Positions 12,493 through 22,445 of a DNA stretch of 64,000 nucleotides are shown here, piece after piece. The notes under the pieces are model-generated. The model was not told the origin of the DNA. It did no database searches and worked only from the letters and a program-made list of their open reading frames with translations. The position numbers and the translations under genes were made by a program. This DNA comes from Dictyostelium discoideum (taxonomy: Eukaryota), in the NCBI GenBank assembly GCA_000004695.1, contig CM000152.2, forward strand, positions 5,760,001 to 5,824,000. Direction: 5' to 3'. Position 1 is the first letter of the stretch. Every line of letters starts with the position of its first letter.

Positions 12493-12774
12493 TTATTTCT
12501 TTTTCTTCATAGCTTGTTTACCTTGACCTTTCTTAATTTCTGGTTTACCTCTTTGTTGATCTCTTTCACGAGTTTCTACCTTTGTGAGTGCTTTATCATC
12601 TGTATTACCAATCATATGTCTTGAAATTAATGGTTTTGAATAATATTGAGTTAAATAATCACCAATTAATGGTTTTCTAAGATATTTTAAACCCATATTT
12701 GGACTACCTTCTGGTCTAAATCCAAAAATTCTTAATGATGCTGAATATGCACTTTGTAATTGTCTTGCAATCAT
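12493..12774 (-). CDS. Mitochondrial ribosomal protein mS33 (MRPS33 / yeast Rsm27 family), 93 aa
   Basis: MIARQLQSAYSASLRIFGFRPEGSPNMGLKYLRKPLIGDYLTQYY… aligns with yeast Rsm27 (…[34 protein letters not shown]…) and human MRPS33 (…SRLSARLFGE…). The C-terminal basic tail GKPEIKKGQGKQAMKKKK also matches. Recalled from memory with no search. Confidence 0.6.
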   Translation of the reverse strand: MIARQLQSAYSASLRIFGFRPEGSPNMGLKYLRKPLIGDYLTQYYSKPLISRHMIGNTDDKALTKVETRERDQQRGKPEIKKGQGKQAMKKKK

Positions 12775-15151: not shown

Positions 15152-17009
15152 TTAATTTGCTAATTTAAAAGTAGTTTCTTCACAACCATATGCTTTTGGT
15201 GATAATTGAATTAAAGTATGTAATGGAATATTAATGAAGGGGCATTCTTCTTTAACTCTACCTTTGAGATAAGAATAGAGACAACGAAGAGTGGCTTGAT
15301 GAGAAACGATTAGGACTGGTGATTTAGTTCTTTCCAATTCTAATAATAGAGGTTCAAGACGTTGAATTACATCTTCATAACTTTCACCTCTTGGATAACG
15401 ATATTGAAGTTTATCAGAATCACGAGCAGCCCTTTCATCTGGCATTTTCTCTTGAATTTCTTCATAGGTCATACCATCGCAAACACCAGCATCAATTTCA
15501 TCCAATGCTCTCATTACAACCTTTGGTTGAGAGATATATTGAGCTGTACGAATTGCACGTTTCAAACTTGAGGTCCATACCACAACTTCACCATCGTAGC
15601 CGTCAGCACGGACTTTTGAACACCATTCACTAATCCAAACGGCCAATTGGTGGGCGTAGTTATCGCCACGTTCAGTGAGGTCGCTGTCGCCACCAATACG
15701 ATTTTGGGCGTTGAACTCGCTCTCGCCCTGACGGGTCAACCAGATGGGACGGGGGTGGAGGTTGGAGGTTCATGAGGAAGAACACCACCCTGCTTGGTAT
15801 GTACCCGGTGATGTTATTCACCTCGATCTTCTTGCCAACATCGAATAGCTTTATGTAGCGAGTTTTCTCGCCCTCCACAGTCTCATACACTTTTAGATAA
15901 TGATTGATTCTATCACGAAAGTCTTGCACGGCCTTGGAGGGATCCACACCCTGGTAATCGGGTGACAATAGTTTGGTCTCCTTAATGTTATGTTCGATCA
16001 CTGATGCATCATTACAAATTGATTCTACATAAACCACAGTCATCTTTTCACGAGTGCATCTTTTCTCTACTAATTGTCTTCTCTCGTTGGTGGAGTTGGT
16101 CGCATCGTAAATACCAACCCTACCACCGTTATGCAACCATGATATCATGTCGTCCAATGCCGCAACTGCCATATGCAATCTCGCCTTTATACCCTCTGGA
16201 TTATGTGGATCAAAGAAGTCATGTGGTTGTCCTGCACCAATTCTTAATCTTCTATATTCTCCAACATTAAACACCTTGGCTGGTACTAACATCCAATTTA
16301 ACATTCTACATATCTTTCTTGCAACATATGTTTTACCTCTTGCTGGTAATCCAACCATTACTAAAACTATCTTTTCTTTATCTAATCCTGTATAACCTTG
16401 TGATCTTTTTTTTGTATCTTCATCTTTTTAAAAATATAAAAAAAAAAAAAAAAATTAATTAATAATCTTTTTTTTTTTTTTTTTTTTTTTTTTCTTTTTT
16501 TTCTCTCTCTCTCTCTCTCTCTCCTACAACTTACTATACTCATGTCTAATTAATAATTCTTGATGTTCTTTTATATCATTAACATCAATAACTTGTTGTT
16601 CTTTATTTGTACCTTTATCAATTATAAGGAATTGAATATCAACATCTTTTGGAAATTCTGGAAACTTTTGTAAAAATAAAAATTTTAAATCTTCAACAGA
16701 AATACCTTTAAAATATGCTTTTTTAACTCTATCTTTAACTCTAAAAAATATTTCTCTACTATTTGGTATTGACGATGATGATGTTGTTGTTGTTGATGGT
16801 GTTGGTGAATTTACATTATAATTATTATTGTCATTATTATTATTTATATTAAAATTATTACCATATCTATTTGAAGAAGGTGATGATGACCCTGCTATAT
16901 TACTCCCAGGTGGTGATGAAGATGGTGATGATTTCGGTATTGAATAATTTGATTCATCATGGTCATTATGATTATTATCTACTGTTATTTGCGTTGTAAA
17001 TATATTATT
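15152..17009 (-). CDS. 6-phosphofructo-2-kinase/fructose-2,6-bisphosphatase (PFKFB). The main exon 15152..16423 carries an apparent +1 frameshift near 15751..15755. The upstream exon 16535..17009 is PB1-like, Ser/Asn-rich and has no start codon
   Basis: The kinase domain (…KIVLVMVGLPARGKTYVARKICRMLNWM…) and the histidine-phosphatase domain (…LTRQGESEFNAQNRIGGDSDLTERG…VVVWTSSLKRAIRTAQ…RYPRGESYEDV…) are both present. Two overlapping ORF-track entries (15672..16358, 15152..15739) join into the expected …FFLMNLQPPPRPIWLTRQGESEFN only if one C is removed from the C5/G5 run. The upstream exon ends …LIRHEY + a | GTAAGT at 16534. The intron (containing (CT)11) ends AAAAAG at 16424, and the splice is in frame into N-EDTKKRSQGYTGLDKEKIVLVMVG. 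The upstream exon is open from the stop at 17010 to 16535 and contains no in-frame ATG. Confidence 0.6.
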
Positions 17010-17522
17010 TTATGATATTGATTTATGCATTTTATAATTTTTTTTTGTATAGCTGTTTTTTTTTTTATATTTTATATTTTTAATTTTATTTTTATTTTTA
17101 TTTTAATTATTTTTAGTACTATTTTACATTAAGGGAAAAAAAAAGTTTTTTTTTTTTTTTAAATTTGGTTAATTTTTTTAAAAATCAAAATTTAAATTTA
17201 TTTAAATTTCTTTTTTTTTTTTTTACTTTATTTCACAACAAAACTTTTATTAGAAAAAAAAAAAAAAAAAAAATTGAAATTTCAAAAATTTTATAAAAAA
17301 AAAAAAATAACCCCTAGAATAAAAAAAAAAAATAAAAAATAAATAAAAAATAAAAAAAAAAAAAAATATCCTGCATCACACCACACTAACAAAACATTTT
17401 TTTTTTTAATTTTTTGTTAATTTTCATTTTTTTTAATTTTTTTTTTTTAATTTTTTTTTTTATTTTATTTTTTTTTCATTTTTCCCCCATCCATTTGATT
17501 TGAAGATTGGATATAATAGGAA

Positions 17523-19929
17523 ATGGATCACCACAAACAATTGACATTACAAACCACATTAGAAAGTTGTAATAATTTATATAATTTATTATTTAATAGT
17601 ATTGGCTCAATTAAACCATCACAACAACAACAACAACAACAACAAAATCAAAAAAATACAAATTCAGTTACATCTAATACAAATATTATAAATGATCAAG
17701 AGATATTTAAATTAAATAAATTTCATTTATATGGTGAGAATAATATAGATGAATTATATAATTCAATAGAATTACAATTACAAACTATTAAATTCACATG
17801 CCAACAATATAGACAATGGGATAGCACAGAAAGAGATTCAATTAAATTTTTTAATACTCAAAAACTTTATAACCAATCACAACAACGTGGTAATTTAGTT
17901 TCAAAAACTTTATTTGATTGTTCATTACTTGGTAAAATTTATTTAAATCAACAAAAAGAACAACAACAACAACAAAAACAAAAAAATAAACAACAACAAC
18001 AACAACCACAACCATTAGTTGAAGATTTATCAAAAAATATTTCAAAAACAGTTGAAGTTAAAAGAAAATTAGGTTTATTAGCAGGTAAATTACAAGAAAT
18101 GACAAATGAATTAAATAATAAATATTCAACATTCTCTGTATTGGATGATTTATTAGGTTTATTAAAAAGTAATACTGAAATTGATTATAATTCAGATTCA
18201 TATGTTAGTTGTAATATTTCTTCTTCAACTTTTTTATTAGATGTAAGTTTTTTTATACTTTCCACCACCACCACTTCCACCATCACTACCACCACTACCA
18301 ACATCACCACCACCAACTCCAATTTATTAAATTTTATAAATTTATATATATTATATTTAGATTGATATTTATCATAATGGTGAAATTAAAGAAGTTAAAC
18401 TTGTACATATTTTAACAACTACTGGTGAAGTTGAACCAGCTGAACAACAATTTAATGATGAATTAACCAATTCATTGAAAACAGATATGAAAGAATTCAT
18501 TAAAAAAGTACAAAGAATTTGTGATTTAGATTTACTATTTAGAAAGTATAAACATTTTGATTTACAAAAAGCATTTTCAATTTTACAATCTGATTTTTTA
18601 AATATTTCAATTAATTCAAAGTAAGTTTTTTTTTTTTTTTTTAAACTTAATTACAATCAATCAATGAATAAATAAATAATGAATAATAAATAATAAATAA
18701 TAAATTTTAATTAATAAAATTTTATAAAAAAAAGTATAAAATATATTGATAATAAAGAAATTGAAATGAATAAAGGATTTGGTGAAATTAAATTAGATTG
18801 TTGTGGAGTTTTAATTAAATATTTTCAATCATATATTGAAAAGATATCAAAGATGAATGAACCTTATTCAATAATGATTGAAATGGAATCATCAGCAGTT
18901 ACAAATAATGGTTCATTAATTGATCAATCTGAATATTCAAGATTATCTTTAAAAACTTTATTACAAAAACAACAACATACTCAACCATCAGCTCAAACAG
19001 ATTATTCAGAACAACAACAACAACAATCAATATCAACACAATTAACATCAATTGAATTTAATGAGAAAGATTGTTTAGATTGTGAACCACTTTCATCAAT
19101 GTTGGAAAGTGATTCAATATTTTCACCAGTTAGATTGGTTTGTAAATTAAATAAACCAATTTTAATTACAAATCAACAATTATCAAAAATTTTAAATTTA
19201 TCAAAAATTCATAGATCATCACAACAGCCATCCCAACAACAGCCATCTCAACAACAACAACAACAACAACAACAACAGCAACAAAAGAAATTAAATTCAG
19301 TTGATGAATCAATGAATGAAAATGGTGATAGTAATATTATTGAAAATATTAATGAATTAATAAAGAAATATTCAATTCAAAATCTTTTAATATCATCATC
19401 ATCATCATCATCATCATCAAATGATTCAAATATTTCGGTGAATGTTGATAATAGTTTTGATTGTGAAGTTTATGGTATGAAACAAAGATATTATTATACA
19501 GGTGAATTTGAATTAGGAATTGAAATTTCAAGAATACCAATTTATCATCCAAGTCAAGTTTATCCAACAATTCAATTATTAAGACAACAAATTGTATTTA
19601 ATATTTTATTTAAAAGTTGTTTTCAAAATTTAAATATCTCTAAAAGTGATGATCATCATAATATTATTGATAATAATAATGATGTTAAAATTTTTGAAAT
19701 CACATCAAATCCACCAAATTCTATAAATATAATATTTTTACATCCAATTGATAATAGTTTTAACTCTATTGATATCTTTATAAAGAATAATGGAGATTTA
19801 GAAGCTTTCTATTATGATAATACAACAAATATCCAACCAAATATTCAAAAATCAACTTTATTTACAAAAATGTTGATAAAATCTTTATCAATTTCAGTTT
19901 CTTTAGCATGTTTTTTTAAAAATAAATAA
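17523..19929 (+). CDS. Hypothetical Gln/Asn-rich protein, 3 exons: 17523..18242, 18361..18620, 18735..19929 (about 724 aa)
   Basis: Exon 1 ends …FLLD | GTAAGT (18243). The 118-nt intron ends ATTTAG at 18360. Exon 2 (IDIYHNGEIKEVKLVHILTTTGEVEPAEQQFNDELTNSLKTDMKEFIKKVQRICDLDLLFRKYKHFDLQKAFSILQSDFLNISINSK) ends …TCA AA | GTAAGT (18621), phase 2. The AAAAAAAAG acceptor at 18734 joins in frame to …NIKYIDNKEIEMNKGFGEIKLDCCGV…. No domain recognised. Confidence 0.5.
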
Positions 19930-21007
19930 TAGTAATAATAATTAAAAAAATAAAAAAACATTCTTTGGATTATTATATTTTATAAAATTAAAATTTTTTT
20001 TTTTTTTTATGTTGTAGCAAACTACATTATTTTTAGGTATTTTTAACGACCTGCACCAGGTTTTTAAAAATCTAAAATTGAAATTTCAATTTCAACCTTT
20101 ATTCATGAAATTTCATTATATATATATATATATATAATCTCGTTAAATATATTCTCATTTTTTTTATATTTATAGTCAAAATCAAAAATAAAAATAAAAA
20201 GACTAATTTTTTAATAAATAATTTTTATTATTTTTTTTTTCTTTTTTTTTTTTTTTTTTAAGAAACTGTGGCTGACTAATAATTTTTTACCTATATTGAA
20301 ATAAAATGTAATTAAAAAAATTTAAAAAAATAATTAGTAAAGTGATTTATTTTTTTAAATTTTAAAAAAATAAAAAAAATAATGAATATAAAAAATTACA
20401 TACATTCTGGTTTTTTCAAAGACACTAACAATACTCATATTTTCTAACCAAAAGTTTAAATTATTACTAAGATTAAATATTCCAGGCTATTAGTGCCAAC
20501 TGGGCCAATACAAACCCTACTAAGGGATTATGGTTTAGTGGTATATTTTTATTATTAATTTTTTATTTTAAGATTTAAAATAAAATCTTAAAAATACTAA
20601 AAGTTAATAATATTTAGTGTGTGGGAGAGATATTTTTTATTTATTTTATTATTAAATTGGGGTAATACCCAGTAAATCCGAAAAATCAAATGTTTTGTAT
20701 TTGATTTTCACGATATCTCGCTGTGCGGTCAAAATAAAATTAAATAACAACGAAAAAATTAAATTACCAAAAAAAAAAAAATTAAATTACCAAAAAAATT
20801 AAATTACCTAAAAAAAAAAAAATATAAATTGTGTGCTCCTGCTGGTATTTTTTTATTTATTTTACTTTTAAAAAATAGGAATATAATTTAAAAAGGTAAA
20901 AAATAAATAAATATATAAAAGAAAAACTTTTTAAAAAAAAAAAATATATTTATATATTAATATAGTTTTTTTAAAAAAAGATATAGAACTAAAAAATTCA
21001 AATAATC

Positions 21008-21208
21008 ATGTTAAAATTTTTAATAGCTATTTTAGTGATATTCTCATTACTTTCAAATTTAAATGCAGTAAATGCAGATAAATATAACTGTGTCTCCAAG
21101 TGTGCTTTTGCTGATCCAAATTATTATAAACTTTGCGCCTTTGGAACCAACGGAAAAGCTTGCAGAGAGATAGAAGAAAGATGTGTAAAGGGATGTCCAG
21201 ATCATTAA
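21008..21208 (+). CDS. Small secreted Cys-rich protein (66 aa; signal peptide plus 6 Cys)
   Basis: MLKFLIAILVIFSLLSNLNA | VNADKYNCVSKCAFADPNYYKLCAFGTNGKACREIEERCVKGCPDH. It has a hydrophobic N-terminus and six Cys residues. The surrounding DNA is A/T-rich and non-coding. Confidence 0.45.
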   Translation: MLKFLIAILVIFSLLSNLNAVNADKYNCVSKCAFADPNYYKLCAFGTNGKACREIEERCVKGCPDH

Positions 21209-21538
21209 TAAAAATGATAAATAAATGTAAAGTTCATTGTTACTTTACGAATTTCAGTTTTATGAAAACTGAAAATAAAAAAAAATAAAAAATATAAACA
21301 ATTTTTCGTTTTTCACTTCCAATCTAAATAAAACATTCTTATTATCTATTTTTGGATTACTAACATATTTAATTATATAATTACTTTATTATTATTGTAC
21401 TTTACAGTTGTAATTTTTTTATATAAGATGACTTGAGATGAGTAACTGGAGTGTCTAATTTTAGGAATTTTAAAAAAAAAAATCAAATAATTTTTGTTCG
21501 ATTGATGTTGAATTATCATAAATTGATTTAATTCAACA

Positions 21539-21549
21539 GGAATCGAACC
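21539..21549 (-). promoter_or_regulatory. External B-box (exB, GGTTCGATTCC) about 31 to 41 nt downstream of the tRNA-Ser 3' end
   Basis: The minus strand reads …ACAGGTTCGATTCCTGT…. This is a second copy of the pol III B-box consensus outside the tRNA body. D. discoideum tRNA genes are known to carry an ex-B box 20 to 40 bp downstream. Confidence 0.55.
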
Positions 21550-21579
21550 TGTGATACAGGTTTTAATGCACTAAAAATT

Positions 21580-21660
21580 CGACACCTGCAGGGTTCGAAC
21601 CTGCGCCTCCGAAGAGAACGCCTTAGCAGGGCGCCGCATTAACCACTTTGCTAAGGTGTC
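21580..21660 (-). tRNA. tRNA-Ser (anticodon GCU), class II with long variable arm, 81 nt
   Basis: Minus-strand read: GACACCT-TA-GCA-AAGTGGTTAA-TGC-G-GCGCC-CTGCTAA-GGCGT-TCTCTTCGGAGGC-GCAGG-TTCGAAC-CCTGC-AGGTGTC-G. The acceptor stem pairs 7/7. The anticodon loop CU-GCU-AA gives anticodon GCU. The T-loop is TTCGAAC and the variable arm is CUC/GAG. Confidence 0.85.
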
Positions 21661-21699
21661 ATTGAAAACCAAATGGGTTATACACTTTGCTAAGGAGTT

Positions 21700-21983
21700 A
21701 TCGAAACAAAACAACAACAATCTCTTTTTTTGACTATCTCAAGGAGAAGCAAATAATAATTGCGTTATCCAATTCAAAAAAAAAAAATCTCTTTTTTTGA
21801 TTATTTCATTTTTCATATAAAAAGACTTAAAAAACAAATAAATAAATAAATAAACTATTTTAAAAAGCCATATTTTTACTTTATTGTAATTTATTATTTG
21901 TTTTGTTTTGAAAAAAGAAAAAGATAATCAAAAACAACAACAACAATCTCTTTTTTGATTGTTTCATTTTTCATATAAAAAGA

Positions 21984-22017
<34 letters not shown>

Positions 22018-22445
22018 GGGAACCAATTTAATCAGAAAATTTCCAGATTTTTAACTTTTTAAAGTAAAATAAAAAAATAGAAAGAAAATAAGATGAAAAT
22101 TACAATCAACACCACAAATATTAAGCAACACAAATGCCTACAAAAAATAAGTGAAATTGTGGATAAAACTCAAATAAAAAAAACAATTCAAATATGTCAT
22201 CAAAATCAATCATGAAACTGATGATAAAATAAAAAAAGATTTAGAAAAAAGTTTTGACAAAAAAGATGTTTTAATCAAAAGTAATAATACAATTCAAAAT
22301 TTGAACCTAAAAAAAAAAAAAAAAAAAAAATAAAAATGCAAACTAACCCCTCTTTTAGAGACCCTGTAAAAAACTACAAATAAAATGAGATCTAGCATCT
22401 CAAGGAGAAGCAACTAATAATTGCGTTATCAAATCCAAAAAAAAA
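21700..22445. repeat. Two dispersed short repeat families upstream of the tRNA-Ser gene
   Basis: R1 is CTCAAGGAGAAGCAA[AC]TAATAATTGCGTTATC[CA]AAT[TC]CAAAAAAA at about 21742..21790 and 22398..22445. R2 is CAATCTCTTTTTTGA[TC]T[AG]T[CT]TC (ATTTTTCATATAAAAAGACTTAAAAAA) at about 21714..21740, 21788..21840 and 21945..22000. Confidence 0.6.

Follow-up and report, generated by a model that had tools for sequence, protein, structure and literature searches.

The bifunctional 6-phosphofructo-2-kinase/fructose-2,6-bisphosphatases (PFKFBs) of animals and yeast, such as human PFKFB1-4 and Saccharomyces cerevisiae Pfk26, Pfk27 and Fbp26, join an N-terminal 6PF2K domain with the P-loop GLPARGKT to a C-terminal histidine-phosphatase domain, and their N-terminal extension is the seat of isoform-specific regulation. 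The same catalytic arrangement is encoded by DDB_G0282759, the PFKFB gene on the minus strand of a 64,000-nucleotide stretch of Dictyostelium discoideum AX4 chromosome 3 (contig CM000152.2, positions 5,760,001 to 5,824,000; hereafter the window, from whose first letter all coordinates are counted). Its deposited AX4 protein, found with the full-length query, is XP_640057.1 (Q54SI2, 488 amino acids). Unlike the animal and yeast enzymes, the Dictyostelium gene carries a low-complexity stretch and a folded ubiquitin-like module instead of a short regulatory peptide, and its letters in the window, taken literally, contain a frameshift and give RQG in place of RHG. Positions 17030..16535 are very probably the true first coding exon of this gene, encoding a module of Bud6/AIP3 rather than PB1 type, with the AX4 reference carrying a stop at codon 7. 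Translation would begin at the ATG at 17030 and run through a low-complexity part of about 85 residues and then a ubiquitin-like beta-grasp module of 80 residues, before a conserved phase-1 intron (16534..16424) leads into the catalytic exon. Exon 1 is already part of an annotated gene, and the finding reads correctly a part of the AX4 reference that is itself flawed; what is new here is of modest novelty, namely a corrected gene model of 588 amino acids and the recognition that amoebozoan PFKFBs bear a Bud6-type ubiquitin-like module.

As the sequence-only reading of this stretch had described, the minus-strand frame 17009..16535 is open for 158 codons plus one nucleotide, contains neither a stop nor a methionine, and ends in LLIRHEY (...KEHQELLIRHEY). 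Chance does not account for so long an open frame: given the exon's own composition its probability is 2.6e-7, and none of 200,000 shuffles stayed open. The string ATG CAT AAA TCA ATA TCA TAA, also recorded in that reading, is present at 17030..17010; its ATG had been dismissed, and a stop does follow it, yet it shares the exon's frame (MHKSIS*NNIFTTQ...), so that a single stop codon alone separates it from the open frame. At the DNA level this ATG (17030..17028, context ttataaaATG) aligns with the annotated start codons of a second D. discoideum assembly (GCA_054883475.1, here L004), D. citrinum and D. firmibasis; the first 27 codons match codon for codon in these three, the sequence upstream of the ATG is unalignable, and 16 codons after the ATG are conserved among orthologues. 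Where the window has the in-frame TAA (17012..17010, discrepant base 17011), every other Dictyostelium sequence examined has TCA (Ser). The start MHKS[IM]SSNN can be read in seven proteins (P0273, P0275, P0276, P0280, P0274, P0278 and P0181), and intact orthologues beginning MHKS[IM]SSNNIFTTQ come from two other D. discoideum assemblies (588 and 596 amino acids), two 'D. cf. discoideum', two D. citrinum, D. dimigraforme and D. firmibasis. These intact orthologues measure 578-596 amino acids, and that of D. purpureum, with a different but homologous N-terminus, measures 551. Moreover, the syntenic D. firmibasis locus (L003) holds an intact 587-residue gene whose start codon falls on window position 17030.

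Because the orthologue starts align, the codons are conserved and the single intron is conserved, comparative sequence places the 5' end at the ATG at 17030, with no upstream exon predicted. The earlier description of the 5' end as unresolved does not survive this comparison, the in-frame ATG being the start in relatives and the codon-7 stop peculiar to this reference sequence; among the causes then proposed (a further upstream exon, a non-AUG start or another indel) the last came nearest, the actual cause being a base substitution. Between the start and the module, the translation of 17009..16776 is of low complexity, rich in Ser, Asn, Thr and Pro; the length of this N-terminal region varies by strain and species, and its first ~45 residues are conserved. 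Routes around the stop were also tried and rejected. No GT occurs anywhere in 17030..16985, and therefore no small intron can bypass the TAA; likewise, splicing of the out-of-frame ATGs (ATGACCATGATG at about 16956) via GTAATA...AATAG/TAGAG meets no acceptor that would bring them into frame, and the stretch to be removed has the look of coding sequence.

At the 3' end of exon 1, a GTAAGT donor begins at 16534 and opens an intron of 111 nt (16534..16424) ending in AAAAAG; the phase-1 join from 16535 to 16423 reads ...HEY-N-EDTKKRSQGYTGLDKEKIVLVMVGLPARGKT, the start of the 6-phosphofructo-2-kinase domain. This intron, with 83% A+T, has the attributes of dictyostelid spliceosomal introns (GT...AG ends, AT-richness and a conserved position), and a single intron at the same phase-1 position reproduces the annotated proteins exactly in L004, D. 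citrinum, D. firmibasis and D. purpureum (four of four sequences), where its length is 70-102 nt and its G+C content 9-17%. Exon 1 is thus upheld as real coding sequence of the PFKFB gene, joined in frame, with the same intron in four other sequences and with module and kinase in one open reading frame (ORF) elsewhere. The dinucleotide repeat reported in the intron is likewise real, although it runs as (TC)11 on the plus strand at 16502..16523 (TRF), that is (GA)11 in the intron, and the 22-mer quoted as (CT)11, beginning with C, is absent, a trivial difference of register. Both D. discoideum sequences, window and L004, carry this microsatellite, which is absent from the introns of D. citrinum, D. 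firmibasis and D. purpureum; the A-run beside it differs by 9 nt between the two.

Exon 2 (16423..15152) comprises a linker, the 6PF2K domain (about 16388..15758), the His_Phos_1 domain (about 15745..15179) and the stop codon. Its frame-corrected product matches Pfam 6PF2K (PF01591) with an E-value of 2.4e-77 (259.7 bits against a cut-off of 27), the kinase P-loop GLPARGKT being present, and, after the removal of one base, His_Phos_1 (PF00300) with 3.9e-35 (121.7 bits). Both catalytic domains are canonical. Read literally, the window carries a +1 shift at 15763, where one extra A (CTCCA[A]CCTCC, 15763..15762) displaces the frame between the kinase and phosphatase domains, which are in continuous frame in L004 and in four Logan read assemblies. 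Removing this A gives NLHLHPRPIWLTR, identical to D. firmibasis; a repair that drops a C from the C-run was considered as well and discarded, as it gives NLQPPPRP, whereas deletion of the A restores exact orthologue identity. A little further on, the window reads RQG, with CAG (Gln, 15730..15728) at the catalytic His codon, where all other Dictyostelium orthologues, the other D. discoideum data included, read RHG, with CAT. This His is needed for bisphosphatase activity and not for membership of the PFKFB family. The linker NEDTKKRSQGYTGLDKEK (about 16421..16390) keeps a basic-Ser motif, KKRSxGYTG, across most dictyostelids, which resembles a basophilic kinase site and recalls the N-terminal phospho-regulation of animal PFKFBs.

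Set against D. firmibasis, the AX4 reference has TAA for TCA, one extra base between the kinase and phosphatase domains, and CAG for the CAT of the catalytic His. Over the 497 alignable codons the two genes show a synonymous divergence (dS) of 0.85, a nonsynonymous divergence (dN) of 0.012 and 10 amino-acid differences; the resulting dN/dS of 0.014 places the gene under strong purifying selection essentially to the present. Window and L004 are 99.47% identical over 13.9 kb. Eighteen substitutions plus indels are crowded within 17366..15728 (~1.6 kb), and 15 of these substitutions are transversions, with not one difference in 22306..17366 (~5 kb). The coding differences from L004 amount to six substitutions and one insertion, only one of them synonymous; besides that site they consist of the codon-7 stop, two missense changes in the low-complexity part (three bases), the extra A and the His-to-Gln change. 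The four Logan assemblies, from separate sequencing runs, carry an intact exon 2 and agree with L004 at 15834, 15763 and 15728, and the codon-7 stop is covered by L004 only. At every difference that D. firmibasis can polarise, it is the AX4 reference that deviates, and the clustering of the differences in 17366..15728 points to a stretch of low quality in the reference.

The last 80 residues of exon 1 (16775..16536, SSIPNSREIFFRVKDRVKK...ELLIRHEY) are predicted, from a 28-sequence alignment, to adopt a beta-grasp fold (predicted local distance difference test score 86.4) with strands at residues 7-13, 16-22, 48-52, 59-61 and 72-77 and a helix at 27-37. Structural neighbours of the model include plexin RBD (9.2), talin F0 (9.0), Par6 PB1 (8.9), Shank SPN (8.9) and ubiquitin (8.8). 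By sequence profile, the module is homologous to the first subdomain of Pfam AIP3 (PF03915), a part of fungal Bud6/Aip3. The first 70-80 positions of AIP3 are matched by 27 of the 28 module sequences and by the modules of three homologues; the PFKFB of Planoprotostelium scores 45.5 bits, above the gathering cut-off of 31.6. A search of 1.84 billion representative sequences with the module profile returned other PFKFBs together with bona fide fungal Bud6/Aip3 proteins, the match falling exactly at AIP3 positions 1-~75, and hhalign pairs the dictyostelid modules with the fungal Bud6 segments at 97.4% (E 1.1e-11). Neither the rest of AIP3 (~330 positions, the coiled-coil region) nor Aip3p_Bud6_N is matched in any PFKFB; with only positions 1-~80 matched, the gene is therefore not a member of the Bud6 family but shares one subdomain with it. 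A search of the Protein Data Bank (PDB) sequences with the module profile found no related solved structure, and the module alignment drew only 2 matches in a word-indexed homology search. The same module also occurs at the N-terminus of a 504-residue Logan protein with RRM RNA-binding domains (P0139), and is therefore mobile between architectures.

As a folded element on the PFKFB N-terminus, the module may act as a protein-protein interaction handle, and may target fructose-2,6-bisphosphate synthesis to a partner. On the pattern of its best structural neighbour, it may set the oligomerisation or activity of the kinase, in the way that the N-terminal ubiquitin-like dimerisation domain of protein kinase D works; alternatively, as its GTPase-binding neighbours and its occurrence in Bud6 would suggest by analogy, it may bring the enzyme to a partner at the cortex or in signalling. 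Among the structures nearest to it are Rap-, Ras- or Rho-binding ubiquitin-like domains, namely those of plexin, talin F0, Shank and ELMO. On these analogies we tentatively raise the possibility of a targeting or switch domain through which amoebozoan cells would tie fructose-2,6-bisphosphate synthesis to a small GTPase or to the actin/polarity machinery of the cortex, a speculative role that, if true, would create a direct link from cell-shape signalling to glycolytic control, lacking in animals at this enzyme. Both amoebozoan PFKFB paralogues bear a folded module otherwise known only as an unstudied piece of Bud6, and the module offers a handle both on fructose-2,6-bisphosphate regulation outside animals and fungi and on the role of that Bud6 piece. 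Literature on DDB_G0282759, on its paralogue DDB_G0276253 or on Dictyostelium fructose-2,6-bisphosphate was looked for, and nothing relevant was found.

Several other readings of the locus can be set against this account. That exon 1 forms part of another transcript, with PFKFB transcripts beginning near 16440, deserves almost no credence: an ATG is available at 16423, but out of frame, and the only in-frame methionine is that of MVGLPARGKT, a start that would lose the first strand of the kinase fold together with the conserved linker. Moreover, intron position and phase are conserved, and module and kinase share one ORF in many Amoebozoa, transcriptome assemblies included, and even one exon in a metagenomic eukaryote (L001). 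The public AX4 model proposes a different beginning. XP_640057.1 is reproduced exactly from four window exons (17397..17391, 16981..16535, 16423..15889 and 15629..15152), the first being a 7-nt micro-exon, ATGTTTT, spliced over 409 nt to 16981, which leaves 17030..16982 intronic. This is the deposited annotation, its splice sites (GTTAGT...ACAG) exist, and it fits the further upstream exon once proposed; still, it is very improbable that the model is right, and the micro-exon is probably not real. No counterpart is found upstream in D. citrinum, D. firmibasis or D. purpureum, D. citrinum has ACGG and D. firmibasis ACGA where the acceptor AG (16983..16982) would lie, the supposed intron end at 17030..16982 shows coding conservation that extends to D. 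purpureum (T-T-x-I-x-V-DNNH), and newer D. discoideum annotations begin MHKS. The same model also invents an intron that hides the frameshift, dropping 259 nt of exon 2 (15888..15630; 1 mod 3 in length), which at 52.9% G+C fails the dictyostelid intron test. The dropped stretch is actually coding: it holds the end of the kinase domain, the frameshift site and the RHG motif of the phosphatase active site, encodes peptides such as IEVNNITGYIPSR and YETVEGEK, and yields protein identical to that of D. firmibasis. Micro-exon and 259-nt intron are both workarounds for sequence defects. A Synstelium polycarpum model from EukProt (P0001) also skips the stretch at the kinase-phosphatase junction, along with a second internal stretch, which is probably again an artefact of gene prediction in this part of the gene. 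As to the module, the sequence-only reading had called it PB1-like, and the beta-grasp fold that it shares with PB1 is indeed predicted; membership of the PB1 family is not borne out. A PB1 domain that uses a basic strand and an acidic OPCA-like cluster to form front-to-back heterodimers would agree with the basic VKK (strand 2) and acidic ELEDxxD (near strand 4) that the wider module family conserves, but is highly unlikely here. Pfam PB1 (PF00564) matches none of the 28 module sequences at E<=1, against 27 for AIP3, and has no match in the window protein at E<=10, while ubiquitin, plexin RBD, talin F0 and the ubiquitin-like domain (ULD) of protein kinase D score as well as or better than PB1 against the module. 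PB1 is only one of many equal neighbours, and the likeness is therefore to the superfold. In the window copy the acidic patch is degenerate, its IIDKG...VIDVNDI having no D-E-D-G-D-like core as judged by inspection.

A more consequential question is whether the lesions are real, that is, whether this PFKFB paralogue has been freshly inactivated in the AX4 line by a codon-7 nonsense mutation, a +1 frameshift and the loss of the catalytic His. For this reading, the deposited AX4 reference does contain the three disabling differences, together with the workarounds of its public model, and the second paralogue, DDB_G0276253, could cover the kinase function. Nevertheless, real inactivation is unlikely. 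With a dN/dS of 0.014 there is hardly room for a period of neutral decay, three independent knock-outs and two missense changes stand against one synonymous change in 1.77 kb, and in exon 2 five independent data sets concur against the reference. The patch itself, rich in transversions and ~1.6 kb long, reaches into non-coding DNA and resembles base-calling error; its spectrum is unlike natural or nitrosoguanidine mutation. The stop, the extra A and the CAG are therefore best explained, with fair assurance, as base-calling or assembly errors of the reference. Some points weigh against the account given here as a whole. The strain origin of L004 and of the four read sets is not known, which also favours real lesions, and for this reason a reference error and a true AX4-private allele are not rigorously separable; the gene structure is drawn from genomic and orthologue comparison. 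In addition, the window module alone matches AIP3 weakly (16 bits, E 0.0068, below the cut-off), so that its homology rests on family profiles, and the role proposed for it is an analogy from fold neighbours, no paper having been found on the function of this subdomain even in Bud6. The distinction has practical weight. Were AX4 truly to carry the lesions, the laboratory strain in widest use would be left without its sole PFKFB with an intact bisphosphatase motif; as for the errors of the public model, they touch AX4-based metabolism, proteomics and knock-out work on this gene, whose correct product has 588 amino acids.

In the middle of exon 2, synonymous AT-to-GC changes have come in a burst that is confined to the D. 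discoideum lineage; it spans 16325..15384, peaks at about 15803..15683 and leaves the protein unchanged. Third codon positions there reach a G+C content of 0.75-0.78 over 40 codons, whereas the range is 0.17-0.28 for the sister species D. citrinum, D. firmibasis and D. purpureum. When D. purpureum serves to polarise the changes, the core shows 44 weak-to-strong (AT-to-GC) against 10 strong-to-weak changes, and the peak 17 against 0. With 0.56 G+C per 200 nt, in a genome of 21% G+C, this patch is the highest of the 64-kb window. The burst looks like GC-biased gene conversion, and may hold more evolutionary interest than the corrected gene structure; the reference errors of exon 2 fall in the same GC-rich patch. 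Elsewhere in the window, the ORF at 12493..12774 matches AX4 DDB_G0282447 exactly.

Compared with described systems, the joining of such a module to a PFKFB is an unusual domain combination, as first remarked, only when measured against animal PFKFBs; it is normal in both dictyostelid paralogues and widely in Amoebozoa. The fusion is found in every dictyostelid group that was sampled (Dictyostelium, Polysphondylium violaceum, Cavenderia, Tieghemostelium, Acytostelium, Heterostelium and Synstelium), and also in Physarum, Planoprotostelium, Balamuthia, Flabellula and Rhizamoeba; several of these proteins derive from transcriptomes, and module and kinase are therefore on a single mRNA. Because it is wide in Amoebozoa and present in the second paralogue too, the combination is, as judged from its distribution among sequences, ancestral and normal in this group. 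That paralogue, DDB_G0276253 (P0283, 508 amino acids), has the same architecture of ubiquitin-like module, 6PF2K and His_Phos_1, and its D. firmibasis orthologue (P0205) is 52% identical to the query. Unlike DDB_G0282759, it does without the long low-complexity N-terminus, and is probably kinase-only, because RSG replaces the catalytic RHG. Yeast Pfk26 is a kinase-only enzyme. Outside Amoebozoa, the closest relatives of the catalytic core are myxobacterial: Sorangium proteins (P0216, P0219, P0221, P0224 and P0226) and many Myxococcota metagenome bins, covering 82% of the query. These bacterial PFKFBs (Sorangium, Polyangiaceae), of about 420 amino acids, are 58-59% identical over the catalytic core and have no N-terminal module; the resemblance hints at PFKFB gene transfer between amoebae and myxobacteria, in one direction or the other.

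The module itself can be placed beside three better-described domains. To the PB1 domains of Par6, PKC iota/zeta, p67phox and NBR1 it has no sequence-profile relationship, and the window copy is without a recognisable OPCA motif. The protein kinase D ULD (PDB 6ra0) shares 8% sequence identity with it, with no evidence of common descent, and its host is a protein kinase, not a sugar-phosphate kinase. With Bud6/Aip3, the fungal actin- and formin-interacting polarity factor, the amoebozoan PFKFBs share by sequence a homologous module of about 75 residues, but not the Aip3p_Bud6_N domain or the remaining AIP3 positions that hold the formin- and actin-binding coiled-coil regions.

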